A stretch of DNA of 64,000 nt from Patescibacteria group bacterium (GCA_041664365.1 JBAYKW010000001.1:7168-71167); one strand, 5' to 3'; positions 8,864 through 63,980 are shown, counted from the stretch's first letter. The notes: generated by a model from the sequence alone, not told the origin. Numbers and translations are program-made.

Positions 8864-8908
8864 TCCTTCGGGACCGCTACGAAGCCAGCGCTTGGCTTCC
8901 GCAAGACC

Positions 8909-8960
8909 CTATCATCCTCACCGATGATGCGATACCGGGGTCTTTTTCTTTTGTGTAATT
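8909..8960 (+). terminator. bipartite hairpin (gaccc/tatcatc…gatgatg/ggggtc) followed by tttttctttt
   Basis: Imperfect nested stem ending at ccggggtc, followed by a T-rich run, immediately 3' of the GC-rich gene. Confidence 0.35.
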
Positions 8961-8967
8961 TTCCTAT

Positions 8968-8996
8968 TTGACACAAAGTCAATCTTATGGTATGAT
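8968..8996 (+). promoter_or_regulatory. TTGACA-N17-TATGAT promoter upstream of M4 protease gene
   Basis: TTGACA at 8968-8973, exact 17-nt spacer, TATGAT at 8991-8996. Confidence 0.4.
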
Positions 8997-9110
8997 ATCA
9001 ATATTAATATGTGACTAAATAAATAAACATGTGGATTTATTATCCATTTCTGCAATCAACCCGACAATATGATTTGGTTGTTTTTGTTTATGTTGACTAA
9101 ATAGTACATC

Positions 9111-12100: not shown

Positions 12101-12302
12101 ATATGATAAGGAATTTACCGGCGGTGTCAATCTTGCCGTGCTTGATATTGATGGAGATAATAAAGCGGAAGTGATCACTGCACCATATAGTGGTAAACAG
12201 AAAGTAAAAGTATGGGACGTCGAATCAACTAAACAAAAACTGCACTCTTCCTTTTGGGGGTTTGGCAAGGATTTTGAAGGTGGAATCAATTTTGCCCGGT
12301 AA
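9111..12302 (+). CDS. secreted M4 (thermolysin-like) zinc metallopeptidase with FTP/PepSY propeptide and C-terminal FG-GAP/VCBS β-propeller repeats
   Basis: Signal peptide. HEYGH zinc site within VAHEYGHGVTQF, plus GALSESYADVFGEAVE. At least six repeats of the form GDxNxDGxxEIIVxP. 1063 aa. Confidence 0.8.
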   Translation: MKKIITFFLTLTISVIYLVGVFHNAYAESNQTEDSNIAQLQNEDGKETLTDLQNKLGDNLQYTIDQNTGNLSFIKSQGNGIPLTGASSNAVGGTSMAGLFLKEYGALFGINDPVSDLSVMKETTDALGMKHIRYNQRYAGVPVFGGEVIVHLNGNLTVASANGRAISNTSLDVTPVISSEVAVTKAKEIWQNQFDTDNPEVLKTNLYVFNKSLFNKNNEDQNYLVWQIELYKKTPSLHEFYFIDTRDGSLVHQITGIKNAISRRIYDCSYGDGFCYLDAYDAVSAYTLGRSEGKPIRGTNPWYGLTDVDNLYSITGYAHNYFLNTFSLNGANNLGGLGDGTYVPYTRTEGLAYIDPVYPACPNAFYDGYAINFCTGWVTTDIVAHEYGHGVTQFSVVDGYGNPAGLIYSDESGALSESYADVFGEAVENYSDGSGDWLIGEDLTGGALRSMSDPMSMSYPDRFNSPYFYCGDSDQGGVHINNSVPNYAAYLMAMGGTFNNCTINGIGRAKEEAIYYRALTQYLTTSSGFNDAYNALVTSCQDLYGALSSDCRQVVKALRAVEMNQGGYCSGQTAVDPGCAVIDATPSVTQVSSDKADGTYIAGTVIDIDVTFSKAVTSSGEITVTLETGATDRSCTFSVSNAAFGSCDYTIQAGDNSNDLNVKSISGSITDAYGNTVTDLTPGSDLSSNKNIKIGAPTLGLLLSQASDTEPFIKRVGHHGNKIKSFAVHKGKGGVLSVEADINGDGINEIVVAPEAGLGGKVKAYTKNGAALASFSPFGSKFNDGISLTSGDVNNDGKKEIIVSPLTKGTPKIKVFRYANKKFTLLKEIKVFGSSVPGGLIVSSGDVNDDNIDEIIVSPYQDQDKKDRVVKIYAYRNNKLVKLASKQLYSKRTEYQGIKTTTADLDGDGRDEIIATPSLNFGDDIQVYGYANGGLTHLDDVWAYSASFNGLTSLATGDINSDGRNEIMLTIKTGGLPYVFIYKFNNGKLVLHDKFRAYDKEFTGGVNLAVLDIDGDNKAEVITAPYSGKQKVKVWDVESTKQKLHSSFWGFGKDFEGGINFAR

Positions 12303-12481: not shown

Positions 12482-13132
12482 ATGAAGTTGCTGGATGCCG
12501 GCGTCATGCTGGTGCTCGTGGTGCTGATGGCATGCTGCATGATCAACCGTGATGATGTGGCAACCAACAAGCCGGATATCAGTACGGCTCAGGCGGCGGT
12601 GGATACCGTCTCCTACGATCCACTCAATACTCCGCCGTCAGGGATATCGGCGGTCAACCGCTTCTACGCCATCGTGGCGGAATACTTCCGCACTGTCGAA
12701 GAAGAGAATTCCGCCTGGATGAGTAATGAGCAGCATTCCAAGACCCGGTTCGAGAAGGAAAATCTGACCAGCTTTTTCACCTGGTGCTGTTTGAGGGACT
12801 ATTACCAGGACAAGCTGACACCGGAAGACAAACGCTGGCTGTTTGCCAATCTGGACGGATCGCGCCCACTGCCAGTCGGCATCGCGTTCGACTACTGGGG
12901 TCCGATCACGGACGTCCTGGGATTTGAGCCGACGGGTAATCCGCGTGCAGATTTTGAGGACTTTCTCCTCAACTCCTTTCCGGATACGGATTACCAAACG
13001 GGGTTCGACGCCTTTCATGACGCAAAAGCCATGAAGGCAATTCACCAGACGGTCCGTGCGCGGATGAAATCGCTAGGGGTCGAATATCCCAATGATCTTT
13101 CGCAGGCCGAGAGTCTGCTCACGTCCGAATAG
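12482..13132 (+). CDS. GC-rich putative lipoprotein, unknown function
   Basis: Hydrophobic N-terminus with an L-M-A-C lipobox-like motif. GGAGG RBS. Codon usage far more GC-rich than the neighbours. Confidence 0.55.
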   Translation: MKLLDAGVMLVLVVLMACCMINRDDVATNKPDISTAQAAVDTVSYDPLNTPPSGISAVNRFYAIVAEYFRTVEEENSAWMSNEQHSKTRFEKENLTSFFTWCCLRDYYQDKLTPEDKRWLFANLDGSRPLPVGIAFDYWGPITDVLGFEPTGNPRADFEDFLLNSFPDTDYQTGFDAFHDAKAMKAIHQTVRARMKSLGVEYPNDLSQAESLLTSE

Positions 13133-23206: not shown

Positions 23207-23293
23207 CCTCGGTCACGCGTGGATCAGGTTTTCACTGAAATGCCCTTGCGCGTGAGGGTGTTTCGCACACGGAAGTGTAAAGGTGGGAGAAGT

Positions 23294-23743
23294 ATGAAGA
23301 CGGCCATAATCATCGTCCTTGGTCTCGCTATCCTCGCAACCGTGATCGGCGTCAGCGTCTACAGGACGAACCAGGTGTTCGCTCTGCGGGCGATGACCAG
23401 CATCCCCGTGCTGGCGCTGACCGACCTCGCCGAAGGAGTGGATTACCGGCTGGAATCGTTCCAGCCTTTCATCCTGCGCAAGGACACGCACTTGAACGAA
23501 GCGTACATGGTAATCGTCAGATCCGACAAACTGCCGGTTTCGAGTTACAATCACTTGGCCGCCCTCGTGGTAGCCAAGCAGCTGGTGGAGATCTGCCCCG
23601 CAGACTCAACCCAGTCGGCTTCGGCGACGGTGACCACCGTGATCAGCGAAGGCGAAGGAGGCATGACTCGTATTCTGCACCTCCGCCCCCAGTACCTCTG
23701 CACGGAGCCCGAACCCAGGTCCATCCCCGCCGGCATTTATTAG
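23294..23743 (+). CDS. GC-rich membrane-anchored hypothetical protein
   Basis: Start chosen at MKTAIIIV, which has AAGGTGGGAG 6 nt upstream; the track start at 23219 has no RBS. One N-terminal TM helix. Confidence 0.5.
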   Translation: MKTAIIIVLGLAILATVIGVSVYRTNQVFALRAMTSIPVLALTDLAEGVDYRLESFQPFILRKDTHLNEAYMVIVRSDKLPVSSYNHLAALVVAKQLVEICPADSTQSASATVTTVISEGEGGMTRILHLRPQYLCTEPEPRSIPAGIY

Positions 23744-36297: not shown

Positions 36298-36825
36298 ATG
36301 ACGGGAAGAAAAAAATATCTGAATCTTGATATAAAAATTATGTCCAAGTCTCATATCAATATCATCTGCGCTTTATCCGAAAACCACGCCATCGGTCGGA
36401 ACGGCAAACTGTTATGGAGTATTCCGGAAGATCTAGCAAGGTTTAAAGAGATTACAACAGGACATCCGATAATTATGGGACGAAAAACCCATGAATCGAT
36501 CGGGAGACCATTGCCGAACCGTACAAATATCATCATATCGCGCAACCTGAAAGCGACTAAAGGCGGGTTCGTATCTTCATCTCTGGAAAATGCAATAGAA
36601 TTTGCATCGAAGCAGGAAGGCGGGGACGAAATATTTATAATCGGTGGTGGGGAGATTTACAAACAGGCACTGCCACTCGCGGATAAACTGTATCTGACTG
36701 TCGTTAAAGGCGATTATGATGGGGACACTTTTTTTCCTGATTATTCCGCATTTGAAAAAGTTACGGTGAAAGGTAACGGAAGGCACGAAAATTTTCAATT
36801 TACATTTTTAGAACTGGAAAAATAA
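36298..36825 (+). CDS. folA: dihydrofolate reductase (alternative start 36343 MSKSHINIICA…)
   Basis: Motifs INIICALSENHAIGRNGKLLW and PIIMGRKTHESIG. Confidence 0.8.
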   Translation: MTGRKKYLNLDIKIMSKSHINIICALSENHAIGRNGKLLWSIPEDLARFKEITTGHPIIMGRKTHESIGRPLPNRTNIIISRNLKATKGGFVSSSLENAIEFASKQEGGDEIFIIGGGEIYKQALPLADKLYLTVVKGDYDGDTFFPDYSAFEKVTVKGNGRHENFQFTFLELEK

Positions 36826-37502
36826 TGTTAAAAGGCAAGCTGATTGTTTTAGACGGAACGGACGGGTCCGGTAAAAAGACCCAGACGGATTTATTGTTGG
36901 CGCGTTTAGAACAGGAGGGAATCGGCAAAGAATACGCGGATTTTCCGAGATACGGAAAGCGTTCCGCCGCGATGGTGGAGGATTATTTGAACGGAGAGTT
37001 CGGCAAAGCGGACGAAGTTAATCCTCACACGGCCTCGCTTTTTTACGCTTTGGACCGTTATGCTGCCAGTAAGGATTTATACAGAAGTCTAATTGATGGA
37101 AAGATTGTTATCGCCAACCGGTATGTATCATCCAATATGGGGCATCAGGGCGGAAAAATCAAAGATGATAAGGACAGAGAAAAGTATTTTGATTGGCTTG
37201 ATAACATGGAATATAACATGCTTGGAATTCCGAGGCCAAATGCTACAATTCTGCTTTATGTCCCGGCCAGAATCGCGCAAGGACTGGTTGCGAAAAAAGA
37301 AGCGAGGGAATATTTGAAAGGCAAAACGCATGATATTCATGAAGAGGATTTGAATCACCTAGAAAACGCGGAAAAAACCTATCTGGAAGCGGCAAAGAAA
37401 TACGGTTTTCAGATTGTGGAATGCGTGGAAAATGGCGAACTGCTTTCCCGCGATGCAATTCATGAAAAGGTGTGGGAAATAGTATCAGGATTGATCAAAT
37501 AG
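36825..37502 (+). CDS. tmk: thymidylate kinase
   Basis: P-loop LIVLDGTDGSGKKTQ. Confidence 0.85.
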   Translation: MLKGKLIVLDGTDGSGKKTQTDLLLARLEQEGIGKEYADFPRYGKRSAAMVEDYLNGEFGKADEVNPHTASLFYALDRYAASKDLYRSLIDGKIVIANRYVSSNMGHQGGKIKDDKDREKYFDWLDNMEYNMLGIPRPNATILLYVPARIAQGLVAKKEAREYLKGKTHDIHEEDLNHLENAEKTYLEAAKKYGFQIVECVENGELLSRDAIHEKVWEIVSGLIK

Positions 37503-37520
37503 CCCCGGCGTGGGAGCGAC

Positions 37521-37556
37521 TTGACAGATATTTCTAATATGCGCTAGTGTATAATT
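37521..37556 (+). promoter_or_regulatory. TTGACA plus TGTATAAT (extended -10-like) element at left edge of GC-rich island
   Basis: TTGACA at 37521-37526; TATAAT at 37550-37555 is preceded by TG. The 23-nt spacer is non-canonical. Confidence 0.25.
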
Positions 37557-37697
37557 ACATAGTAAGAAAATATTGGGCGGCCTAAAGGTCGTTTATTTTA
37601 TTTAGAGGAGGGTTTTCTAGATCACTAGCTGAGATTGTTTTGGCTGGTGATTTGGGGAATAGCCCTTTGACAATTGGCTCTGACGAAAGGGGAGATT

Positions 37698-38240
37698 ATG
37701 TACCGACTTGCGAGGATTTGCATGCTTGGTTGTGTGCTACTTTTACTGGTGACTGTCGATGCAAGCGCACAGTATGTGCTTGCCCGGTCAGTTGTCGGTG
37801 CAGGGCACGGACCTAGCACAAGCGGTCAATGGACGCTTCAAGCGTCACTTGGCCAGAGTGTTTCCAGTCGGGCAGGCGGGATGGTTTTTCTGGTCCACTT
37901 CGGTTACTGGAATGAGATCAGTGTCGTTTCCGGTGTTGATATCCCTCTGGTGCCGATGTCGACTTCACTTGACCAGAACTATCCCAATCCCTTCAACCCA
38001 GCTACGGTGATTCCATTCTCCATCGGAGGCAGCGAACCTGAGCAGGTTTCACTTCGCATCTACAACCTGCGCGGCGCTCTAGTGCGGGAACTGACCACGG
38101 GCTCTTGCCTCCCCGGATTCTACAAAATCCAGTGGGATGGTACTGATACCCAAGGGTTACAGGTTGCGACGGGCGTTTACTTCGTCCGGCTCGTGACAAA
38201 CCACGAAACCTTCAGCAGGAAACTCCTGCTGGTCAAGTAA
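37698..38240 (+). CDS. GC-rich secreted protein with type IX secretion system (Por) C-terminal sorting domain
   Basis: AAGGGGAG RBS and a signal peptide. CTD motifs LDQNYPNPFNPATVIPFSI, VSLRIYNLRGALVREL, IQWDGTDTQG and GVYFVRLVTNHETFSRKLLLVK at the extreme C-terminus. Confidence 0.65.
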   Translation: MYRLARICMLGCVLLLLVTVDASAQYVLARSVVGAGHGPSTSGQWTLQASLGQSVSSRAGGMVFLVHFGYWNEISVVSGVDIPLVPMSTSLDQNYPNPFNPATVIPFSIGGSEPEQVSLRIYNLRGALVRELTTGSCLPGFYKIQWDGTDTQGLQVATGVYFVRLVTNHETFSRKLLLVK

Positions 38241-38252
38241 GGGAGAAACGGA

Positions 38253-40499
38253 ATGAAGACATTCGGCATTCTTATGGTGGCACTGCTTGTGGCAGTCGCG
38301 GCACTTGCTGCCGTACCCGCGCAGGTGTCATACCAGGGACAGCTCACGAACGCCGGTGCTCCGGCTTCCGGCGAGCTCGTCTTTGCTTTCCGCATCTTTG
38401 ACCAGAACACTGCCGGATCACTCCTCTGGAGCGACACCGACACGCTGACCGTCACGAACGGTTTGTTCGATGCATACCTCGGCTCCAACACGCCTCTGCC
38501 GAAGGAAATTTTCACCGGAGCCGCGCTCTGGCTGGAGATCGACGTGGCGGGTGAAACTCTAGAGCCGCGCCAGCAGATCGTGACGGTTCCTTACGCCTTC
38601 CGTTCAGCCATGTCTGATACTGCGATCGTCGCGCTCAACGCGAGCGGTGGCGAGTCTCTGTGGGAGACGAACGGCACGGACGTGTACCGGCCGACGGGGA
38701 ATGTTGGGATTGGGACTAATAATCCCACAAGTAATCTGGATATTCGTGGGATTGTCCAAGTTGTTGATGAAGCATCTCCTGACACGAAGGACTATGCCAG
38801 TCTTGGTGTTACGAGGGCGAATGTCGCAACCAACAACAGCTACATTGGACTTACTAAGCAGTCAATTGTTCCCTGGGGCATTGGCATCAGCAGTACAGAA
38901 AAGTTCATTGTTGGCGTTGCATCAAGTAACCCGGCAAGGACGATTCCGGCTCCGCTTTTGACCATTGAACCTTTCACTGGTAACGTCGGCATCGGAACAA
39001 CAAGTCCGATACAAGAACTGGATGTGGCTGGAACGATTTATTCCAGCAAGGTGAAGTCCAATACTCCTCTGGATGATGAATTCTCCGGGAGTAACGGATA
39101 TTGGGGGCTGAGAACCGACACTTCCAACAGGTTCAACCTGGATGTCTATAATGGTGGTAGCCCCAAAGCGGCAATCACAGTTACAAACACTGGAGATGTC
39201 GGCATTGGGACGACGGTACCAGGAAGAAAATTAGATGTAAATGGACAAATCTACAGCTCTGTTGCGGCATCGGATATTATCAATTCCGGTGGTAACTTCT
39301 TGGGAAGCGGGGGATACTGGAGTTTTAGAACTGGAGTTGATAATCGAATGGGGTTAGATGTCTACAACGGAGGATCATCACTTGAAGCTCTAACTGTCTT
39401 ACAGAATGGCAAGGTCGGCATCGGGACCACTTCGCCGGCCTACACACTGGACGTCAACGGCACGATTCACGCCACGAACATCATCGCCGACAGCTTCGAC
39501 GACGGTGATTGGACGATCGGGAGTGGGGTGCTCTGGACGAACGACAAGGTCGGGATCAATCTGTCTTCACCGAGTTACCCGCTTCATGTTCAGGAGAGCA
39601 GTTCAGCAGACAACAAGCGAGCTGTTTACGGTAAAGAAACTGCGACTTCTGGTAACGTGTTCGGCGTTTACGGGGAGACTCTATCAAACGCAAGGAGTAC
39701 AACCGACACTCCGGAACGTTCGAGTGGCAGTGCAGCTGGGGTCTATGGACTCTCAAGCAGAACGGGTGCGGTCGGCGATGTGTTCGGAGTGCTTGGAGAA
39801 ATCCGGGGAGAAGGAGGGGATGGACCTACTCCGGACTTTGCTGCAGGAGTCTACGGCGTCAGCTATGCAACAACTGGCAAGTCAGCTGGTGTCATCGGTG
39901 ATTCCAAATCTGCAAGCAACTACGGTGCTGGCGTGTTCGGTGTCAACAGCTCCACCAGTGGAGCTACGCGGGGAGTGTGGGGCGAGGTACACTCACACGA
40001 TGGTGCTGGTGTTTATGGTCGCAATGTAGATGAAGATACGCACGTACTCTACACGGCAGGGTATTTCGAAGGAAACCTTGAAGTGCTCGGCACATCCACT
40101 ATGGCGGCCACACTCTATGTTCCGGACATCGCTCAGTACGCTGACACCAAGGACGGCATGGTGCAGTCCTACGGCATGACGTCGGCGTCGCCCATGGTTT
40201 CCGACCAGGGTTTCGCCGAACTGCGGAACGGCACTGTCCGGGTAACGCTGGATGACACGTTCTTTGAACTCATCTCCGAGACCGAGGAGCCGCATGTGCA
40301 GGTGACGCCTTACGGTCCGACCGGGCAATTGTGGGTGGAAACGCACACTGACGGTTTCACCATCCACGATCCCATCGGATCCTCCGCGAAGGTGGCGTAC
40401 ACCGTGACGGCGGTAAGACGCGGCAAGGAGGGAGTCCGTCTCGAACAAGTTGACCCGCAGACCTCGGAGCGTCTGAGGGAATTGGAATCCGCTCGGTAA
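38253..40499 (+). CDS. GC-rich tail-fibre-like / cell-surface repeat protein
   Basis: Signal peptide. At least four repeats of G(N/D/K)VGIGT(T/N)xP…LDVxG(T/Q)I. The N-terminal VSYQGQL…FRIFD…LWSDT…VTNGLF module is seen in Bacteroidota tail-fibre-domain proteins. 748 aa. Confidence 0.6.
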   Translation: MKTFGILMVALLVAVAALAAVPAQVSYQGQLTNAGAPASGELVFAFRIFDQNTAGSLLWSDTDTLTVTNGLFDAYLGSNTPLPKEIFTGAALWLEIDVAGETLEPRQQIVTVPYAFRSAMSDTAIVALNASGGESLWETNGTDVYRPTGNVGIGTNNPTSNLDIRGIVQVVDEASPDTKDYASLGVTRANVATNNSYIGLTKQSIVPWGIGISSTEKFIVGVASSNPARTIPAPLLTIEPFTGNVGIGTTSPIQELDVAGTIYSSKVKSNTPLDDEFSGSNGYWGLRTDTSNRFNLDVYNGGSPKAAITVTNTGDVGIGTTVPGRKLDVNGQIYSSVAASDIINSGGNFLGSGGYWSFRTGVDNRMGLDVYNGGSSLEALTVLQNGKVGIGTTSPAYTLDVNGTIHATNIIADSFDDGDWTIGSGVLWTNDKVGINLSSPSYPLHVQESSSADNKRAVYGKETATSGNVFGVYGETLSNARSTTDTPERSSGSAAGVYGLSSRTGAVGDVFGVLGEIRGEGGDGPTPDFAAGVYGVSYATTGKSAGVIGDSKSASNYGAGVFGVNSSTSGATRGVWGEVHSHDGAGVYGRNVDEDTHVLYTAGYFEGNLEVLGTSTMAATLYVPDIAQYADTKDGMVQSYGMTSASPMVSDQGFAELRNGTVRVTLDDTFFELISETEEPHVQVTPYGPTGQLWVETHTDGFTIHDPIGSSAKVAYTVTAVRRGKEGVRLEQVDPQTSERLRELESAR

Positions 40500-40527
40500 C
40501 ACGAGTGTGAGAATTGAACATAAGTGA

Positions 40528-40580
40528 CATGCGTTTTCTGTACAACATGCATATGTTGGCCGGGGAGCGCATTTTTTTAT
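40528..40580 (+). terminator. terminator-like region (atgcg…cgcat outer stem, caacat-gcat-atgttg inner hairpin) + ATTTTTTTATT
   Basis: GC-rich stems and then a T7 tract after the tail-fibre-like gene. Confidence 0.3.
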
Positions 40581-40605
40581 TGAACAAAGTGTAATTAGTG
40601 TCATG

Positions 40606-40654
40606 CTGAATTTATTTCAATATCTATTAATGAGAGATTCTGAAATAAATTCAG
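40606..40654. repeat. 14-bp perfect inverted repeat ctgaatttatttca / tgaaataaattcag (21-nt spacer) upstream of gatB
   Basis: Arms at 40606-40619 and 40641-40654. TATATGATA follows at 40695-40703, 13 nt before the gatB ATG, with no SD (short-leader or leaderless transcript?). Confidence 0.5.
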
Positions 40655-40715
40655 AATGACGATTAGAAAATTGGTATTATTGAGCTTATTGGTGTGTATA
40701 TGATACAATTACCCC

Positions 40716-42212
40716 ATGAAACTGGAAACAATCATCGGTCTGGAAATACATGTACAGCTCAATACCAAGAGCAAGATGTTTTGCGCATGTTCCAATGACA
40801 GCGATCAAGCCAAGCCGAATACCAATGTCTGCTCAATCTGCATGGGACATCCCGGGACACTGCCGGTAACCAACCAGCAGGCGGCTGACCATGCCTTGCT
40901 CACTGCACTGGCGCTACACTGCAAGATAAATGAGTATTCCAAATTTGACCGGAAAAACTATTTTTACCCTGACTTGCCGAAAGGCTATCAGATTTCTCAG
41001 CTTGACCAGCCGGTCGGTGAGGACGGGCGCTTGATTATTACCATCGGTGAAGAGCGGAAACGCATCGGGATAACCCGCCTGCATATGGAGGAGGACGCGG
41101 CAAAGTTGATGCACCCCAACGATGCGGATTATAGTCTGGTGGATTTTAACCGCGCTGGTTCGCCACTTATTGAAATAGTCACAGAACCGGATATTAGGAC
41201 GCCGGCGGAAGCCAGAATATTTTTAGCTGACTTGAAACTGCTTTTAGAATACTTGGACATATCCGACGCTGACATGGAAAAGGGCAATTTGCGCTGTGAC
41301 GCGAATATTTCTCTCCGGCCGGAAGGTGACAGGAAATTTTATGCAAAGACGGAAATAAAAAACATGAACTCTTTCCGTGGTGTGGAAAGAGCGCTTATCT
41401 TTGAAATAGAAAGACAGTCCAAATTATGGGAAGCGGGTACTCCACCTGATAAGCTGATAACCAGGCGCTGGCTGGACGACCAGGGGATTACCAAAGAAGA
41501 GCGCAGTAAAGAGGAAGAACATGACTACCGGTATTTCCCCGAGCCGGATTTGGCGCCACTTCATTTTACTGAGGAATATGTCAGAAGTATTGAAACAAAA
41601 TTGCCGGAACTGCCGGATGAAAAAAGAAAAAGGTTCCATTTGGAATTGGGCACGACCTATTCTCAGGCGGTTACTCTGACTTATTCCCGGACAGTTGCTG
41701 ACTTTTTTGAAAACACAATTACTGAACTTAAAGCATGGGTAGCGAGCCAGGAAGACAAATCTGAATTGGATGAGGAGACGAAAAAGAAACTGGTGAAGAT
41801 GACAGTTAACTGGATCACTACAGAACTTTTCATGCTGATTAAAGAAAGCCAAATTGAACCTGAAAAAATCAAAGTAACACCGGAGAATATGGCCGAACTG
41901 GTTAAGATGGTTTATATGGAAGAAATAAACAGCAGTGCCGCGCAACAAGTTCTGAGGATAATGTTTGAAAAAGGTTCCGATCCTTCTCAGGTTGTTGAAG
42001 AAAAGAATTTGAAGCAGATGAATGATTCATCAGAGATTGAGCTGATTGTGAAAAAAATTGTTGAAACAAATGAAAAAGCTGTTATTGATTTTAAATCAGG
42101 AAATGATAAGGTACTGCAGTTTTTAGTAGGATTAGTAATGAAGGAAACTAAAGGGAAGGTCAATCCGAAAGTAGCCACCGAAATGCTGAAAAAGATTATG
42201 GGTCAGTTTTGA
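40716..42212 (+). CDS. gatB: Asp-tRNA(Asn)/Glu-tRNA(Gln) amidotransferase subunit B
   Basis: N-terminus MKLETIIGLEIHVQLNTKSKMFC and a C-terminal GatB/YqeY domain. 498 aa. Confidence 0.9.
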   Translation: MKLETIIGLEIHVQLNTKSKMFCACSNDSDQAKPNTNVCSICMGHPGTLPVTNQQAADHALLTALALHCKINEYSKFDRKNYFYPDLPKGYQISQLDQPVGEDGRLIITIGEERKRIGITRLHMEEDAAKLMHPNDADYSLVDFNRAGSPLIEIVTEPDIRTPAEARIFLADLKLLLEYLDISDADMEKGNLRCDANISLRPEGDRKFYAKTEIKNMNSFRGVERALIFEIERQSKLWEAGTPPDKLITRRWLDDQGITKEERSKEEEHDYRYFPEPDLAPLHFTEEYVRSIETKLPELPDEKRKRFHLELGTTYSQAVTLTYSRTVADFFENTITELKAWVASQEDKSELDEETKKKLVKMTVNWITTELFMLIKESQIEPEKIKVTPENMAELVKMVYMEEINSSAAQQVLRIMFEKGSDPSQVVEEKNLKQMNDSSEIELIVKKIVETNEKAVIDFKSGNDKVLQFLVGLVMKETKGKVNPKVATEMLKKIMGQF

Positions 42213-51676: not shown

Positions 51677-52993
51677 TCAGCAACCATTGCGAGTACTACG
51701 AATGTAGGACGATGCAATCCTGATACTTTTTGACTTAAGTGCATTATCCCTAGGATCTTTTTTTGTCTCACCTTTTTTATTAATATTCTTATAATTTGTA
51801 AGACTTTCTGTAAATGTCGGCATTCCAATTTTAACTAGGGTATCTTTAGTTACATCACCATTAGTAGGCTTAAGTCCATATTTTTTTAATACTTTCTTTA
51901 TTACCGATTGAAGGCTATCGTCTAAAACAGAGTAATGTGATTTTTCATAATTAGTATAATAGTATGTTGCTCCCCAATTATCAACTCGAGTTTTCAGATA
52001 GTTGAGTGTTTTAAATAGACCATTTCTGTTTACTATTTTTATATCTTTAATAATTTTCTTAAATGCATTTGGCACAGGATATATTTTACTGCCTCGGAAT
52101 TTGATTCCAAGAAATTCAAAATCACTTCTCTCTATAGTGCAATACTTGTTATTATCCTTTGGTTTACTTATTGATAATGGATGTAATTTAAGTCGTAGTT
52201 TGTTCTCAATAATTTCTTTAGCAACTTTATGCATTTTTACTGCCTCTTCTTTTGTCTTGCACATAATAATAAAATCGTCTGCATAACGTACCATTTTATA
52301 ATTATGTTTTATCATTATCTCATCTAGTGGGTATAAATAAATGTTTGCAAATAATGGTGAAAGTATCCCTCCTTGAGGTATTCCGCCCTCTTTTGTCACG
52401 AAATTATCATATTCTCCAATTAAAATAAGATCATTCTTGTTACCTATCTCATTAATCAATGCACCTTCAATCAACTTATTTATTGATTTATCAGGTAAAC
52501 AAGGAAAAACATAATTATTTAGTAGATTAGAGACATCTATAGTATCAAAAAATTTTCTAATATCTGCATTATACACCCATTCATAACCGTGTTTTTTATA
52601 AAGTACAATTCTATCAACAGCATCTTTAACACGCTTTTTTTTAATGTATGCAAAACTTACAGGATTATCAATGTTATATCTTACTTTGATATAGTCAAAA
52701 ATTACAAGTTCAATTGCTTTTTGAACAACTCTGTCACGAACTGCGGGTATTTTGATAGCTCTAGTTTTCGATCCTTTCTTTAAAGGATAGCCTCTTAATG
52801 CTAAAAATTTGTATTTATTGTTAAGTAGATCTTTTCTAATAAAATTAAGCTGATTTTTTAAGTCATTTTCGAAATCCTCTATTGTCTGATTATCAATGCC
52901 TTTAGATTTATCTCTATGCTTTATTGAATCCCAAGAAAGTCGCAAATTATTTTGAGTTGCGACTTTTTTAAGTAGATTATTCGTTTTTTTCAT
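51677..52993 (-). CDS. group II intron-type reverse transcriptase/maturase (no endonuclease domain)
   Basis: RT motifs TRAIKIPAVRDRVVQKA, GIPQGGILSPLFANIYL and RYADDFIIMC (YADD). Maturase X-like NWGATYYYTN. 438 aa. Confidence 0.75.
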   Translation of the reverse strand: MKKTNNLLKKVATQNNLRLSWDSIKHRDKSKGIDNQTIEDFENDLKNQLNFIRKDLLNNKYKFLALRGYPLKKGSKTRAIKIPAVRDRVVQKAIELVIFDYIKVRYNIDNPVSFAYIKKKRVKDAVDRIVLYKKHGYEWVYNADIRKFFDTIDVSNLLNNYVFPCLPDKSINKLIEGALINEIGNKNDLILIGEYDNFVTKEGGIPQGGILSPLFANIYLYPLDEIMIKHNYKMVRYADDFIIMCKTKEEAVKMHKVAKEIIENKLRLKLHPLSISKPKDNNKYCTIERSDFEFLGIKFRGSKIYPVPNAFKKIIKDIKIVNRNGLFKTLNYLKTRVDNWGATYYYTNYEKSHYSVLDDSLQSVIKKVLKKYGLKPTNGDVTKDTLVKIGMPTFTESLTNYKNINKKGETKKDPRDNALKSKSIRIASSYIRSTRNGC

Positions 52994-53052
52994 AATTAGT
53001 ACCCCTAAGCTCTCCGGCTGGTCTGCACCAGTGTAACCTGCTTTTAAGGATA

Positions 53053-53215
53053 TAGTGCAGTCTTAGAGTTGGTAACATTCAGGCTGATGGTTATAACCAT
53101 TAACATTATTGTCAGCATTCTGAGACTTAAGCTACTTAGTACCTTGTAGATTGAATTATACCGATTCATCGTGAATTGGCAAATATTGTCTATTTTGGTG
53201 TTTAAATAAGCAGCT
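53053..53215. repeat. tandem direct repeat copy A (~158 bp)
   Basis: Differs from copy B at only 3 positions (tta/atg and a/g). Confidence 0.7.
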
Positions 53216-53372
53216 AAATTTACTCGGCCGCCGATATCCGCCAAAATGCTATCGGCTTCCGGCGCTATTTTTCGCCATTCCATGTTCTTTGCTGTTAATA
53301 ATAATTCTTGTTCCGCCAATCCGGAGGCTTGGGCGCTACAATTAGCGGTTCCAGAATAAAGCAAGTTACATG

Positions 53373-53535
53373 CAGTCTTAGAGTTGGTAACATTCAGGCT
53401 GATGGTTATAACCATTAACATTATTGTCAGCATTCTGAGACTTAAGCTACTTAGTACCTTGTAGATTGAAATGTACCGATTCGTCGTGAATTGGCAAATA
53501 TTGTCTATTTTGGTGTTTAATAGCATATACAAAAT
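53373..53535. repeat. tandem direct repeat copy B (~158 bp)
   Basis: Near-identical to 53053-53215. A 157-bp more GC-rich spacer separates the copies. Confidence 0.7.
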
Positions 53536-53656
53536 AACATAGAATATAGTTTTGTCAACTCCATTAGTATACTAATCGATATCAATCCGTGATCATAGAA
53601 TCGAGAATAACCAAAACAACGCATTTAGAAATTATTGATAATAACTATTTTTCGTT

Positions 53657-54091
53657 CTAGCAATCCTTCTTCTCATCTTTTTCCGACTGCGCCAGTAAAT
53701 ACTCCAAGACCTTGTATTCCGAAAGTTCTTCTACATTCGACTTTTTAATTAATCTATCGAAGTATAAAACTAAAAACAAAACAATGAAGAGTGATATAGT
53801 AACATACCAATTCATAGAATGAATGACTTCATTCAAAGCATTTAATAGTAAACTACCAGTTATACCTAGAGCGAATCCAAATGTAACTGATACCAACGTT
53901 TGTCTATCTTGTTTGATATTATTCAAAGCATTTTGCAATCCGATATTTTCTATATCAAAAGCTGCTATGTATTTTTCAACTACAGCATTTTGTTGATTAG
54001 CCGAAAGTTTCTGCCACAACTTCTTATTGGAGCGCTTTAGTCTTTTAGTAATTTCTTTCCTAAGGTCATTTTCCCTCTTTTGTAAATTCAT
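53657..54091 (-). CDS. small membrane protein (2 TM), last gene of defence-like operon
   Basis: 144 aa with a charged N-terminal half and two hydrophobic helices. Confidence 0.45.
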   Translation of the reverse strand: MNLQKRENDLRKEITKRLKRSNKKLWQKLSANQQNAVVEKYIAAFDIENIGLQNALNNIKQDRQTLVSVTFGFALGITGSLLLNALNEVIHSMNWYVTISLFIVLFLVLYFDRLIKKSNVEELSEYKVLEYLLAQSEKDEKKDC

Positions 54092-54100
54092 AATGATAAT

Positions 54101-54646
54101 CTAATTTTTAATTTTCTTCGCGATCCATGCTCCGCCCCCAATAAGTATTCCTAAGCCTACAGCCCAATCCGTGAATGATCCTGAATTGTTTGACGAATTA
54201 GTGCTTGCAGAATTTGTCGGGGTAATCTGATTTGCTAAAGTCGCTGCACCTTTTACTTCGCCTTGATCATCAGTTTGTACAGAAGCCTCATCAAGTTCTC
54301 TTTGTAAATTTTCTTTTTCTTCTTCCAGTCTTTTGATTTCCGTTTGCTGATTTTCGTACTCAGTTTTGGCATTTGAATAATCAGCGTAAGAATAATATGT
54401 CCTACCATTAAATTCATAGGTTATTGGTGTTGGGGCGGTGTATGTTTCTGCCTCTTCTTCTGTTCCATTACATTCTGGATAATATGGCGCACATGTAGCG
54501 GATAATGGCGTGCCATCACAACAACCACAACCACATACCCCATCATGATGTGAACAGCATCCACTTCTTGCATCTGCATTATATTGTGGCAATAACAAAA
54601 ACAACCCAAATATGAAGATACTTAGGATATAATGCACTTTTTTCAT
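54101..54646 (-). CDS. secreted Cys-rich, coiled-coil protein with C-terminal membrane anchor
   Basis: Signal peptide; CCSHHDGVCGCGCCDG…C…C; EIKRLEEEKENLQRELDEA coiled coil; C-terminal hydrophobic GLGILIGGGAWIAKKI. Confidence 0.45.
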   Translation of the reverse strand: MKKVHYILSIFIFGLFLLLPQYNADARSGCCSHHDGVCGCGCCDGTPLSATCAPYYPECNGTEEEAETYTAPTPITYEFNGRTYYSYADYSNAKTEYENQQTEIKRLEEEKENLQRELDEASVQTDDQGEVKGAATLANQITPTNSASTNSSNNSGSFTDWAVGLGILIGGGAWIAKKIKN

Positions 54647-54789
54647 TGTGATTTGCCCAATAGTTAGCTATATTTCAACACTACTCCAACTTATCCTAGA
54701 AATCAAGAAAACCGCTTTTGGAGGATGCTTAATTAACCTCTGTACAGACACAATATTTCTGTTTAGGAACCATCATGTAGTAATCTGTG

Positions 54790-55761
54790 TCAAATCAATC
54801 TACTAACAGAAAAACCGTCTACTTTTTTCGTGCTCTTGTTTATTTTAATACTTATATTTTTAACTACACTTGGAAGTATTTCATCAACAGATTTATCAAG
54901 ATTTATTGAATCACCTGAACAGGTAATACTAATTGCAATGCTACAATTCACATACACGTAATAGTACTTTTCATCAGCTTTATATATATAATAATTCCAT
55001 ATAAATACATCATTGTATTCATGATCAACAATATTTTCAAGTTGTATATTTCTGTCTATATTAACTGCGAAGAATAATTCTTCAGGGTATACAAGATTAT
55101 TTATATCATTTAATCCTATCTCCTCAATCATCAGCGATAAGTATTGCTCATTAATAAATTCTATCTTTTCAGCATAATCTGTTAAAAATTTATCTAATAA
55201 ATTATAAAAATAAACATCAGATTCTTTTCTTAATTCTTCATGTAACTCATCTGAATCACCAAAAGCATTTCTATCATTTGAGATAAAACATAAATCATTA
55301 CATTTATTGCGAGCAAATTTAACTTCCTCCCATATTATGAAATCTCGAAATCCAATGTCACTATACTTTTTAGTAGAGTGGAAAGGAGGTTTATTATTTA
55401 ATGATCTACTTATAATTTGTGGGACTAGTACAGGACAGCTTAAATTATCAATAATCTCTATATTCTTATTTTCTACTATCTTTAGCAACCTTTTTTTGTA
55501 TCCAGTTACTTCATTATTTTTAAGCGTAATTTCGCTTGATGTAGATATTTTCAATTTCTTTTTGAATTCTTTCAATGACTTTTCTATATCTTTACAGTCA
55601 TCAATTTCTTTACTGAAGTTTTTTATTGTTTCAGATATCACAATGTCAGGAATAAATAGTTTCGATTTAGTTTTTTTTAAATACGCAAATAATGCTTGGA
55701 ATCTTGGAGTATCAAGATAGTAATTATCTTTTAATTCAGTTGAATCAAGAATTATATTCAT
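54790..55761 (-). CDS. PIN-like (DUF4935-type) domain protein
   Basis: Conserved acidic positions in MNIILDSTEL, IPDIVISETIKNF, IGFRDFIIWEEV and CFISNDRN fit a PIN-like nuclease fold. 323 aa. Confidence 0.4.
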   Translation of the reverse strand: MNIILDSTELKDNYYLDTPRFQALFAYLKKTKSKLFIPDIVISETIKNFSKEIDDCKDIEKSLKEFKKKLKISTSSEITLKNNEVTGYKKRLLKIVENKNIEIIDNLSCPVLVPQIISRSLNNKPPFHSTKKYSDIGFRDFIIWEEVKFARNKCNDLCFISNDRNAFGDSDELHEELRKESDVYFYNLLDKFLTDYAEKIEFINEQYLSLMIEEIGLNDINNLVYPEELFFAVNIDRNIQLENIVDHEYNDVFIWNYYIYKADEKYYYVYVNCSIAISITCSGDSINLDKSVDEILPSVVKNISIKINKSTKKVDGFSVSRLI

Positions 55762-55781
55762 TAAAATATTATTAAATTATA

Positions 55782-56888
55782 CTAAATTTGGGAGAATCCC
55801 AAATCCTTTCCAATTGGCTTGAGCACCCCATCATTTACAGTTGCAATACCAAGATCTAGCGAATTAATAAACTGTATGTATTTATCATCACGCGGTTCAC
55901 GAGAAGGTGTAAGTATTTTGTATTGATCACTGAATTTAAGATTTTTTTCTTTTTTAAATTTGTTAATCTCAAAATAGTCATATTCATATAATTGAACAAT
56001 TGCTTTCCTTGCCTGTGATCTAAAATTTCTATTTTCAGTACTTTTTACTTCAAATAAGAATGAGCGTTTTTCATCATGTGCAAATAAATCAACAAATTCA
56101 TTTGATAAGGTTGCATATCCTTTTTTTCTAAAAATATCGATTAGATTTTGCAAAACTGAATAGTGGGATGATTCTGCCCTCGCAAGAATCTCATTATCTC
56201 TTGTTATTATAGAATGTGGCTTAGTGATAATTCTTTCATTAATTTCATTTATAAACCTTAATGACGCTGCGTGACGCAGTGTCTCAGTCGCATTATGTAC
56301 TTCATAAAAATCAGATGGCTTATCCTGTATAATATTTCCTCTTGTTGAGTGTCCAGAATATAAATATAATGATCTCTGTCTGAATAATATTTGTTTCGCA
56401 ACCTCTGGTGAAACTTTTGAGAAACTACCCATTCGTGGGAAGCCTTCTATTTCCGATACTGGTATTGAGTTTTCAACCAGTTTATCAATTAAATGAGCTG
56501 TCTGTTCATTATTATTTGGATTAGGGGATTCCCAAGTTGCTGGATCGGGTATTTCACCAAATAAATATATTTCTGTTAGTGGAACTAATAATGGCCATCT
56601 ATTTTCATTATGTTTAACTTCGTAATGCCATAAATAATTATCTTTAATTGAAAAATGAAACCCAACGACCCCTATTCCTATAATCCCGGATTTTGCATTT
56701 CGAAATGCAGAGTTATTTGAGCCAGTACTATGGATAAAAAAGATATCACCAGTCTGTATTTTCCCCCATCTTTCCTTTAAATGTGATTCCAATCCCCATG
56801 TCATGTACTTAAAAGCAGTCAGCCAATGCTCAGGTGGACCTGTAAATCTAAATAATTGTTTTGTGCTTATAGCTGAACTTAAATTCAT
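55782..56888 (-). CDS. PUA-like (EVE/ASCH-type) domain fused to PD-(D/E)xK nuclease - candidate modification-dependent restriction enzyme
   Basis: Start taken at MNLSSAIS (overlaps the MazG stop as TAAtATG). N-terminus FRFTGPPEHWLTAFKYMTWGLES…GDIFFIHSTG…IIGIGVV is PUA-like. C-terminus FVDLFAHDEKRSFLFEVKST…QLYEY carries a D…EVK nuclease motif. Confidence 0.45.
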   Translation of the reverse strand: MNLSSAISTKQLFRFTGPPEHWLTAFKYMTWGLESHLKERWGKIQTGDIFFIHSTGSNNSAFRNAKSGIIGIGVVGFHFSIKDNYLWHYEVKHNENRWPLLVPLTEIYLFGEIPDPATWESPNPNNNEQTAHLIDKLVENSIPVSEIEGFPRMGSFSKVSPEVAKQILFRQRSLYLYSGHSTRGNIIQDKPSDFYEVHNATETLRHAASLRFINEINERIITKPHSIITRDNEILARAESSHYSVLQNLIDIFRKKGYATLSNEFVDLFAHDEKRSFLFEVKSTENRNFRSQARKAIVQLYEYDYFEINKFKKEKNLKFSDQYKILTPSREPRDDKYIQFINSLDLGIATVNDGVLKPIGKDLGFSQI

Positions 56889-56889
56889 A

Positions 56890-57237
56890 TTACAAATTTG
56901 TATATTTTGTGTGTTTACCCTTTGCTTTGTCAATTGGATACTTTTCTTCATTCTTTTTAATCTTTTTCTCAAGCGCTTCTTCAATATCAATATTCAAATC
57001 ATTACTCATTAATAGCACCCAGTATAAAACATCCGCCAACTCTTCTCCAATATCCGATTTGTTTGTATCAATATATTTTTTTATCTCTTCATCATTCTTC
57101 CATTGGAAATGTTCCATAACTTCTCCTGCCTCAAGCATAAGCGATAATGCGACGTCTTTTGGATTGTGAAATTGTTTCCAATCTCGGGCATCCCTGAAAG
57201 CAATTACTTGTTTTATTAATTCTTCAATATTTTTCAT
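56890..57237 (-). CDS. MazG-like nucleotide pyrophosphohydrolase
   Basis: Motifs RDARDWKQFH…LMLEAGEVMEHF…EELADVLYWVLLMSNDLNID. Confidence 0.65.
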   Translation of the reverse strand: MKNIEELIKQVIAFRDARDWKQFHNPKDVALSLMLEAGEVMEHFQWKNDEEIKKYIDTNKSDIGEELADVLYWVLLMSNDLNIDIEEALEKKIKKNEEKYPIDKAKGKHTKYTNL

Positions 57238-62822: not shown

Positions 62823-63980
62823 TTATTTCGAGATTACGATTTCGATATGATCCTTTAATGAAGGGGAGCGGAACACCCAAAACGGAGAGAATTTCACGTC
62901 CACATTTTGAATTTCCGGGAAGTCCAGAAAATATGTCTTGATCTCCTGTTTATCACGGTTCAAAAGATTGTCACGGTCAAAAATCGGACTGGCTAATTTT
63001 ACTTTGGTTGTGCCGTCCAGTTTAACGCTTAAAACAGCCGTTTGGTTTTCCAGGTCAAATGATTTTATAGCATATTGCAGGAGGTTTATTTCCGTACCGG
63101 CCAGTTCTTTGTTGCTGGAGACTTTTTCTGACAATAAATTTTTCGCGTAATTGAACAATTCAGTTTCGTCAAAGACAGCAGCTATTACATTTATCTTGCT
63201 GGTTATTTCAAAAGAATTAACCTCGGCATCGGGTTTAACACTCGCTTCTTCATTCAGTATCTGATAGACAACTGCCTGTGGCAGGATTTTTTCTGCTGAA
63301 TTTTCTATTGCAATCTCTCGGGACAATTCTTCCGCCGCTTTTTCCTTTAATTCAACGGCAAACTCTTCTTTGGAATCGTTGATGTCTTTCAATGTGGCGA
63401 CAGTTACATCACGGAGTCCATTATTCATTGCTTCTGAACTCTCGGCGTAAATTTTATCCTGCAAACCTTTCCAGAGGGCGACAATTGTAAAACGGGAAGG
63501 TCCGATATTTCCCGTCTCGCCTGACTGGTCGGCTTCCACTTCGACTTCCACTTGTCCGCCGGCCGGGACGGTTACTGTTTCTTTGGTCCGGAACAGAACA
63601 TCGTCTTCAGAAAGCAGGCGTGTAGACGCGACCAAAGGTTGATTGCTAGTATATTTATTATAAATTGTAACCGTTCCTTCCGCCTTACCCTGAACTTTGC
63701 TCTGACTGGTTACATTGGTAAATGTTTTAGTTTCCTCGATCTGTTTTTCCACCAACCGACCCGGTAGAGAATTAGTCTGATTTTCAAGTTGATTTATTTC
63801 GGCAGTCAAAGGCAAATCAAAAGAAATACTGACCGCTTCGGGGCTTGGGGTGATTGTAATCACCGTTTTGGCCAGTGATACATATACAATGGCGACTACC
63901 GCAACCAAAGCCACACCAAGAAACAGTACAGCCATTTTTGAATAGCGCTTTCCAATTTTTGTTTTTTTGATTGTCGGCAT
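62823..63980 (-). CDS. membrane-anchored extracytoplasmic hypothetical protein
   Basis: N-terminal TM helix (MAVLFLGVALVAVVAIVYV) then a ~350-aa Thr/Ser/Glu-rich domain. Complete within the window. Confidence 0.5.
   Translation of the reverse strand: MPTIKKTKIGKRYSKMAVLFLGVALVAVVAIVYVSLAKTVITITPSPEAVSISFDLPLTAEINQLENQTNSLPGRLVEKQIEETKTFTNVTSQSKVQGKAEGTVTIYNKYTSNQPLVASTRLLSEDDVLFRTKETVTVPAGGQVEVEVEADQSGETGNIGPSRFTIVALWKGLQDKIYAESSEAMNNGLRDVTVATLKDINDSKEEFAVELKEKAAEELSREIAIENSAEKILPQAVVYQILNEEASVKPDAEVNSFEITSKINVIAAVFDETELFNYAKNLLSEKVSSNKELAGTEINLLQYAIKSFDLENQTAVLSVKLDGTTKVKLASPIFDRDNLLNRDKQEIKTYFLDFPEIQNVDVKFSPFWVFRSPSLKDHIEIVISK

Follow-up and report, generated by a model that had tools for sequence, protein, structure and literature searches.

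A putative horizontally captured surface-fibre operon in a Patescibacteria genome, pairing a T9SS-type sorting domain with a phage-tail-fibre-like protein

The closest described counterparts of the fibre protein treated here are the MAT fibres of the predator Bdellovibrio bacteriovorus, in particular their non-S74 subgroup (8OND, 8OML, 8OL4 and 8ONC; Caulton et al., 2024, PMC10769870). A MAT protein consists of a signal peptide, a beta-rich domain that is conserved and about 130 amino acids (aa) long and a trimeric fibre with an S74 or non-S74 tip; the fibres are displayed on the predator surface and their tips are built from adhesive-type domains (PMC10769870). A second known kind is the type A C-terminal domain (CTD) of the type IX secretion system (T9SS), with the C-termini of PorU and PorZ and the CTD of mirolase as solved examples; in Porphyromonas gingivalis, PorU and PorZ both end in such a domain. 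Here we describe two adjacent genes, ORF1 and ORF2 (ORF, open reading frame), which carry parts that belong to or closely resemble these kinds and which lie in a 64,000-nt stretch of DNA labelled by NCBI as Patescibacteria (GCA_041664365.1 JBAYKW010000001.1:7168-71167), hereafter the window. The reading we prefer, to which we give a probability of roughly 0.6, is that they form a real chromosomal two-gene operon encoding a surface-fibre system, captured horizontally as a complete module by a genome of the Patescibacteria, also known as the candidate phyla radiation (CPR).

ORF1 and ORF2 are co-oriented, separated by a gap of 12 nt, and lie between tmk upstream and gatB downstream (Table 1). 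The original prediction, made from sequence inspection alone, had pointed to this pair as a compositionally atypical island that encodes a T9SS-sorted protein and a 748-aa tail-fibre-like repeat protein with a signal peptide, in a host with type IV pilus genes and no T9SS machinery in sight. As a description of the window this holds up on calculation. In 200-nt windows the GC content goes up from 0.41-0.42 (37301-37600) to 0.53-0.62 inside the island and down again to 0.33 at 40501, and by gene it is 0.54 in ORF1 and 0.55 in ORF2 against 0.44 in both tmk and gatB. GC at third codon positions (GC3) is 0.59 and 0.58 in ORF1 and ORF2, compared with 0.47 in tmk, 0.48 in gatB and a mean of 0.43 over 23 core genes; the tetranucleotide distance reaches z = 2.6 for 38001-40000, and the relative synonymous codon usage (RSCU) of the island correlates with that of the host core genes at r = 0.15. 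Because GC3 and RSCU also differ, the shift is real and goes beyond the amino-acid effect of a Gly/Ala-rich protein. Only the predicted limits of the island, 37503 to 40580, needed adjustment: the two-gene unit is real, and its limits, judged by conservation with a sister genome, lie slightly inside at ~37606 and ~40500.

The true start of ORF1 is most likely the ATG at 37698, as judged from sequence features, which would give a protein of 180 aa instead of the 188 aa counted from the listed start. In its favour are a GGGGAG ribosome-binding site ahead of this ATG, the 180-aa form of two ENA gene calls, and the eight codons from here to the next ATG, in which the sister genome shows four synonymous changes and one replacement. 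The public annotation (MFA6391163.1, by PGAP) has 119 aa, lacks the signal peptide and the greater part of the N-terminal module and is too short; other pipelines call the gene at 172 or 180 aa. The protein comprises a Sec-type signal peptide assigned by inspection (aa 1-25, MYRLARICMLGCVLLLLVTVDASA, with cleavage placed between VDASA and the following Q), a module of ~45 conserved residues within aa 26-75 with the pattern SVxxGGG...GQ...GFW (the N-module), a variable linker and the CTD, and the same layout is fixed in alignments of its homologues. We also considered ORF1 as a lipoprotein, given an MLGC stretch, and rejected this: the sister genome has Phe in place of Cys 12, a residue that stands before the hydrophobic core.

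The CTD of ORF1 occupies the extreme C-terminus of this signal-peptide-bearing protein and was assigned as a T9SS type A CTD or FlgD-type immunoglobulin-like (Ig) beta-sandwich. The hidden Markov model (HMM) TIGR04183, named as a check in the original prediction, matches at 35.8 bits (cutoff 23), spanning aa 103-185 of the 188-aa call, whereas Pfam Por_Secre_tail (PF18962) passes marginally with 27.5 bits against a cutoff of 27 and scores below FlgD_ig (PF13860; 40 bits, cutoff 27). An AlphaFold2 (AF2) model built with 30 homologues gave a predicted local distance difference test score (pLDDT) above 90 over aa 100-180, folded as a beta-sandwich, and below 50 for the N-module, which fits a segment that becomes ordered only in a complex. 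When this model was compared with the PDB using Foldseek, ranks 1-3 were taken by PorU (E = 8e-5) and PorZ, and the Ig domains of FlgD came after them. ORF1 thus resembles T9SS type A CTD proteins in its HMM pass, its C-terminal position and Sec signal peptide, its motifs (NYPNPFNP...GVYF...K-LLLVK) and its PorU/PorZ-like sandwich. It differs from them in three ways. The usual T9SS cargo carries an enzyme or adhesin domain, whereas the region N-terminal to the CTD in ORF1 is just the ~45-aa module, with zero matches in Pfam, NCBIfam and PHROG, and the linker; the gene sits in a Patescibacterium with no T9SS genes found in the 64-kb window; and, in the lineages inspected, a gene of this type always adjoins a fibre gene.

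ORF2 begins with a signal peptide (aa 1-23, again by inspection), followed by a beta-rich N-domain, a stalk of GNVGIGT-repeat modules, a Gly-rich region and a tip. Units of the GNVGIGT type start at 38694, 38976, 39189 and 39405, the last three at a spacing of 213-216 nt, and the stalk has low pLDDT in the AF2 monomer model, as expected for an obligate trimer. The protein has no match in Pfam and hence lacks the S74 chaperone domain (PF13884). A phmmer search of the PDB returned 8OND, the Bdellovibrio MAT fibre Bd2133, at E = 6e-6 and more weakly 8OL4 and 8OML, and in a Foldseek search with the ORF2 model ranks 1-8 were all MAT fibres (Bd2133, Bd3182 or Bd1334). Likeness to MAT fibres thus extends to domain order, to the sequence and fold of the stalk, to a non-S74 beta-rich tip and to the mosaic nature of the relatives, in which the N-domain and GNVGIGT motifs are common and the distal parts differ. 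Points of difference are the length, 748 aa compared with about 1,000, the lifestyle of the organism, a putative epibiont and not a predator, and the N-domain, which reaches 26 bits (E = 6.5e-6) with the NCBIfam profile NF053851 (Bdello_MAT_N), below its cutoff of 60 bits, in a match that covers just profile positions 3-78 of 162. Because of this score we call ORF2 MAT-like in architecture and, by sequence comparison, in stalk homology, with family membership unproven. For MAT genes we found no ORF1-like partner described in the literature, the MAT loci themselves not having been checked for one.

The two proteins seem to belong together. In all seven independent lineages inspected, namely the window, the sister lineage (contigs L002-L004), L014/L015, L007, L008-L011, L012 and L013, a small ORF1-like protein is encoded directly beside an ORF2-like fibre. 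The order of the two genes is reversed in L012 and L013, and in the latter the ORF1-like partner begins with a duplicated N-module. In L014/L015, with ~51% GC throughout, ORF1 is 51% and the ORF2 N-terminus 64% identical to the window proteins; contigs L007-L012 have 61-66% GC and there the pair matches the local composition, and L007 and L008/L010 encode other CTD-tagged enzymes too, a sulfatase and a C1 peptidase. Profile scans with ORF2 added one distant, uninformative locus among genome contigs (L005, from a Saprospiraceae metagenome-assembled genome, or MAG) and L006 among metagenome contigs. Inside the window, ORF1 and ORF2 were the sole matches among 708 six-frame ORFs to local HMMs of the CTD, N-module and two fibre end-domains.

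One explanation offered by the original prediction was that GC-rich DNA had been joined artificially to a Patescibacteria contig, by chimeric assembly or as a deliberately implanted cassette, to which binning contamination may be added. Such a view would draw on the sharp change of composition at both ends of the island, on the lack of a record of the exact flank proteins (gatB, tmk, thyA) in the contig index, and on the sister copies, all of which lie on short contigs of 0.9-4.5 kb, so that assemblies tend to break near this locus. However, a Logan contig of 3,358 bp from run SRR6484324 (L001), the product of another assembler, matches window 37307-40664 at 100% identity; it takes in 196 nt from the end of tmk, the entire island with its left junction and the greater part of the AT-rich spacer that precedes gatB. 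The tmk frame is unbroken across the point where this contig starts, and it is therefore not a pasted-in foreign piece. It ends at 40664, 4 nt past an inverted repeat in the ORF2-gatB spacer (Table 1), and this palindrome may be the cause of the assembly breaks. The same locus was further recovered from another project with other samples: contig JAHJXJ010000209.1 (L002) of the MAG GCA_018827645.1 carries folA, tmk, an extra gene, ORF1 and the start of ORF2, with the same switch from AT-rich flank (GC 0.32-0.39) to GC-rich island (0.51-0.55). The extra gene, of the transglutaminase-core type, has a counterpart nowhere in the window, which means that the spacer between tmk and the island is variable. 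Four NCBI MAGs, each with a Patescibacteria label, contain the sister ORF1, which also occurs in JGI and ENA assemblies, and the leader RNA described below is common to two Patescibacteria lineages and not to a third lineage. This effectively excludes a chimera, contamination or an implant.

Comparison with this sister contig also bears on the other option put forward originally, that of a recent foreign acquisition whose T9SS signal cannot work in the host, and on its extension to functionally dead cargo on the way to decay. Amino acid identity between L002 and the window is 87% for folA, 81% for tmk, 74% for ORF1 and 75% for the ORF2 N-terminus; nucleotide identity amounts to 76.9% (flank) and 76.4% (island). 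The two island copies are thus ~24% diverged, which excludes "recent". Across the compared segments (window 36298-38540 and L002 74-3464), the ratio of nonsynonymous to synonymous divergence (dN/dS) is 0.14 for ORF1 (signal peptide plus N-module 0.18, CTD 0.11) and, over its first 96 codons, 0.27 for ORF2; both genes are under purifying selection. The idea of dead cargo can point to a composition and codon usage far from the host core (GC3 0.58 against 0.43; RSCU r = 0.15), to the T9SS components, none of which (sprA, porK/L/M/N, porU, porV) was found among the annotated ORFs of the 64-kb window, and to a synonymous divergence between the island copies that is below that of the flanks. Set against this are the intact frames and constant gene order after 24% divergence, the dN/dS of 0.11-0.27 with its lowest value in the CTD, the presence in the window copy of every invariant CTD residue of a 30-sequence alignment, and the changes in the leader that maintain its structure. 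We regard a decaying, non-functional insert as very unlikely, and of the original claim it is the foreign origin that survives, and not the recency or any decay that the claim may imply.

The operon is preceded by a structured leader of 92 nt, conserved with the sister contig (L002 2520-2640); the stretch 37503-37605 between tmk and this leader has no counterpart there (blastn against L002 stops at 37507 and resumes at 37606). Its long hairpin (37612-37660) has 23 pairs, 9 of them G.U, as counted by hand, and a small hairpin (37672-37697) overlaps the GGGGAG ribosome-binding site. The minimum free energy of the leader is -39 kcal/mol (z = -6.0), and none of 200 shuffled sequences folded as well; the opposite strand reaches just -14.1 kcal/mol, which argues for structure at the RNA level on the coding strand. 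In the sister contigs L002, L003 and L004 the long hairpin retains 19 pairs, with pairing intact after each of the 4 one-sided changes; in the small hairpin of the sister lineage, two double changes are compensatory. With two distinct lineages compared, this is suggestive of a structure under pairing conservation; the hairpin is absent from the third lineage, L014. Putative roles for which it is a candidate are transcript stabilisation or translational control. Rfam gave zero matches in the leader or anywhere in the window, where no RNA gene was detected, and a sigma-70 promoter scan upstream of ORF1 found zero sites. A possible extended -10 element, TGTATAAT at about 37548-37555, was seen by eye and is not relied on.

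Because ORF2 resembles viral proteins, we also weighed whether the locus is a degraded prophage, with ORF2 as a virion tail fibre and ORF1 as an accessory gene. ORF2 matches PHROG tail-fibre families (65.7 bits), a tail-protein family at its tip (phrog_6616, aa 632-745), the distal tail fibre of Thermus phage phiFa and 169 tail-fibre-like viral structures of BFVD at E <= 1e-3. With phage tail fibres and tailspikes (PHROG 9942, 18345 and 6616; phage phiFa) it thus shares the stalk repeats and possibly the tip. In contig L012 (1-14076) the pair is located between a gene set of helix-turn-helix (HTH), RuvC-like and IS1595 zinc-ribbon proteins and a large serine recombinase, which suggests that the module can ride a mobile element in GC-rich bacteria and would also suit a phage origin, as would a weak Baseplate_J-like gene 22 kb away in the window (62823-63980). 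Nevertheless, no other phage genes, integrase or att repeat adjoin the island, ORF1 has no PHROG match, and among 80 viral contigs with CTD proteins, scanned with the ORF1 alignment, none carried the N-module or the fibre end-domains. Unlike phage tail fibres, ORF2 has a Sec signal peptide and lacks both an S74 chaperone and a context of virion or baseplate genes; signal peptides on both proteins, assigned by inspection, would suit the cell surface and not a virion, and from the MAT fibres it is clear that the fold also serves cellular bacteria, on their own surface (PMC10769870). A prophage remnant is, in our judgement, quite unlikely.

As for the origin of the captured operon, named homologues of ORF1 and ORF2 come mostly from Zixibacteria, KSB1, Cloacimonadota and Eisenbacteria, with single cases from Armatimonadota and Acidobacteriota, and this clade is the only one of Patescibacteria among them. 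This distribution of sequences is best read as an ultimate origin outside Patescibacteria and, together with the composition, would point to a GC-rich, T9SS-using lineage from which the module was captured whole. The island has the composition, the patchy distribution and the site between housekeeping operons of other acquired islets in CPR/Patescibacteria. It is unlike the usual ones in being kept across diverged lineages under purifying selection, in a high GC content that neither lineage has brought down to the host level, and in lacking an integrase, a tRNA target and a direct repeat.

Composition by itself is a poor guide in this window. Three other GC-rich ORFs (starting at 6917, 12482 and 23219; GC3 0.69-0.76) show that the island is not unique, and the strongest tetranucleotide outlier is 7001-9000 (z = 4.0). 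The ORF at 6917-8863 encodes a 648-aa product with a hydrophobic N-terminal third and zero matches to Pfam, NCBIfam and PHROG profiles; its 72 homologues of the same length (~640 aa) are 38-54% identical, and every named one is from Patescibacteria (Komeilibacteria, Paceibacterota, Magasanikbacteria, Falkowbacteria). By sequence it is a putative protein of a phylum-restricted conserved family within a compositional island of its own. Since the most GC-rich gene of the window thus belongs to a Patescibacteria-only family, GC alone is a weak sign of foreign origin here. BLASTP of the island proteins against ORFs 6917, 12482 and 23219, and of 12482 against 23219, gave nothing significant. The likeness of the island in RSCU to its GC-rich homologues or to ORF 6917 was tried as a pointer to the donor and dropped, being largely driven by GC3.

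These observations lead to a further alternative, in which the immediate source was a GC-richer Patescibacterium and the island has been spreading among Patescibacteria at this locus, the transfer from outside the phylum being much older. Synonymous differences per site are saturated in folA (0.77) and tmk (0.76) and amount to 0.57 and 0.39 in the island genes; likewise, four-fold sites are identical at 43/122 positions (35%) in the flanks and 67/113 (59%) in the island (Fisher p = 2.5e-4; ~25% by chance in both). Either a more recent shared ancestor of the island, through spread or repeated capture at one site, or constraint on synonymous sites is a possible cause. In keeping with spread are also the similar codon usage of the Patescibacteria-only gene at 6917, the leader hairpin common to both Patescibacteria lineages and the tmk-island spacer, which differs by the transglutaminase gene of the sister. 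Against it stand the synonymous-site constraint just mentioned, which could lower dS too, the third lineage L014 (~51% GC), which is of an unplaced taxon, and the fact that no GC-rich Patescibacteria genome with the pair was found. We consider this route unlikely; it is compatible with capture of a complete module as preferred here and alters only the way of transfer.

Several points weigh against the preferred reading. Simple co-inheritance of the island with its flanks does not fit the four-fold sites well. The edges of the island showed no direct repeats, att-like sites, terminal inverted repeats, mobility genes or tRNA target, so that no insertion mechanism is visible. High GC is not specific to foreign genes in this window, the codon usage of ORF 6917 correlates with that of the island at r = 0.70 (RSCU), and the donor could have been a GC-richer Patescibacterium. 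Of the sister ORF2 only about 96 codons are available, and the recovered sequence of that lineage stops short of the right junction; the absence of T9SS and outer membrane from the host rests on general knowledge of Patescibacteria and the 64-kb window; and to the sub-threshold MAT_N score of ORF2 it must be added that trimerisation, contact between ORF1 and ORF2, surface location and adhesive function, as well as the direction of transfer, are what we infer. What we show are the gene structure, the identities of the domains, the reality of the junctions, the synteny, the selection and the conserved pairing.

With these points in mind, a captured surface-fibre operon may be pictured as follows. 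ORF2 would be a Sec-exported, phage-tail-fibre-like adhesin, presumably trimeric, and ORF1 its dedicated partner, with an N-module probably ordered only in the complex. In a diderm cell of the donor type, the CTD would presumably route the partner through the T9SS to the surface, where the N-module may dock or anchor the fibre, itself lacking a sorting domain. A Patescibacteria lineage would then have acquired the pair downstream of tmk, either before the split of the two lineages that are now 77% identical or via later spread, and have added the structured RNA leader, both genes being kept under purifying selection. Patescibacteria are usually regarded as lacking both an outer membrane and a T9SS. 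If so, Sec export alone would place ORF1 and ORF2 outside the cell, the CTD would most likely be an Ig-like domain with a role in structure or anchoring rather than in secretion, and the fibre would most likely mediate attachment to a host cell or surface, as MAT fibres suggest by analogy.

A bolder idea is that the CTD is kept to meet the T9SS parts of the host cell and not those of the symbiont. Here the epibiont would secrete ORF1 by Sec, the attachment complex exposed on the surface of a T9SS-bearing host, its PorV/PorU sortase, would recognise and cleave the CTD, and the N-module with its bound fibre would become covalently linked to the surface lipopolysaccharide of the host, so tethering the symbiont to it. 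We give this long odds, and such an engagement of a host T9SS would be remarkable, if true. In a milder version, the N-module/CTD protein may be an unrecognised adaptor that carries or anchors CTD-less MAT-like fibres via the T9SS in diderms, and Patescibacteria would have taken over the pair as a means of attachment. Both versions are compatible with the data: the CTD is the most constrained part (dN/dS 0.11), its invariant residues are kept and the pairing is constant in seven lineages.

The rest of the window contains genes for PilB, PilC and a pilin-like protein, PheS/PheT, GyrB, NusG, L1, the pyrimidine pathway, thymidylate synthesis and DUF5671; PilB/PilC, DUF5671 and the Patescibacteria-only family at 6917 accompany the NCBI label of the host. 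The terminator-like hairpin 3' of tmk marks the end of the host thymidylate operon, and the inverted repeat in the ORF2-gatB spacer may be a terminator of the operon or a leader element of gatB. An AT-rich block with a reverse transcriptase looks like a retroelement or defence islet. The 385-aa protein at the end of the window, whose gene adjoins the ThrRS and NUDIX genes 22 kb from the fibre operon, could be a remnant of a phage-tail-like or contractile system, and the large secreted-type protease is a further candidate surface or host-interaction factor.

Table 1. Features of the window and of the sister contig (positions in the window unless L002 is given).
Feature	Position	Strand	Remarks
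tmk	36825..37502		Upstream neighbour of the ORF1-ORF2 pair
Terminator-like hairpin and T-run, 3' of tmk	37574..37595	+	Consensus scan
Structured leader of operon	37606..37697	+	Upstream of ORF1
ORF1	listed 37674..38240; best-supported start ATG 37698, 37698..38240	+	ORF list
ORF1 CTD	aa ~88-180; 37959-38237	+	
ORF2	38253..40499	+	748 aa; ORF list
ORF2 N-domain, beta-rich	aa 24-120; 38322-38612	+	AF2 pLDDT 79-93 (aa 21-110)
ORF2 stalk, GNVGIGT-repeat modules	aa ~145-450; 38685-39602	+	
ORF2 Gly-rich GVxG beta region	aa ~460-600; 39630-40052	+	
ORF2 tip, non-S74 C-terminal domain	aa ~628-735; 40134-40457	+	AF2 pLDDT 81-92 (confident aa ~650-730)
AT-rich 26-nt inverted repeat	40600..40660	+	88% complementary, fold z = -3.1; ORF2-gatB spacer
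gatB	40716..42212		Downstream neighbour of the ORF1-ORF2 pair
Transglutaminase-core gene	L002 1247-2236	-	AT-rich; between tmk and island
Patescibacteria-only family gene	6917-8863	+	GC 0.60, GC3 0.75, tetranucleotide z = 4.0; most GC-rich gene of window
Large secreted-type protein	9111-12302	+	Thermolysin (M4) protease, FTP propeptide, several FG-GAP repeats
Short ORF	12482-13132	+	GC3 0.69; no Pfam match
Short ORF	23219-23743	+	GC3 0.76; no Pfam match
AT-rich block	51677-56990	-	GC3 about 0.2, tetranucleotide z up to 2.9
Reverse transcriptase RVT_1	51677-52993		Within AT-rich block
PIN_12 protein	54790-55761		Within AT-rich block, which also holds unannotated ORFs
385-aa protein	62823-63980	-	Baseplate_J 24.9 bits (cutoff 21.1), phrog_6 baseplate-wedge 37 bits; weak

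A search of the literature on T9SS in Patescibacteria turned up nothing relevant. As far as we searched, three things are new: the small N-module/CTD protein that constantly partners such fibres, a T9SS sorting domain present and selectively retained in Patescibacteria, and the conserved leader hairpin. Composition alone would have misled a search for foreign DNA in this genome, which has several GC-rich genes, one of them Patescibacteria-only. A life attached to other cells is assumed for Patescibacteria, and the molecules of attachment are largely unidentified; the present locus is a concrete, conserved candidate, made up of a phage-like fibre and a dedicated partner from outer-membrane bacteria. 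It raises the question of what role a T9SS sorting domain, the most constrained part of the operon, plays in a cell presumed to have no T9SS, and also that of how MAT-like fibres without a sorting domain reach and stay on a diderm surface, for which the constant partner suggests an adaptor.

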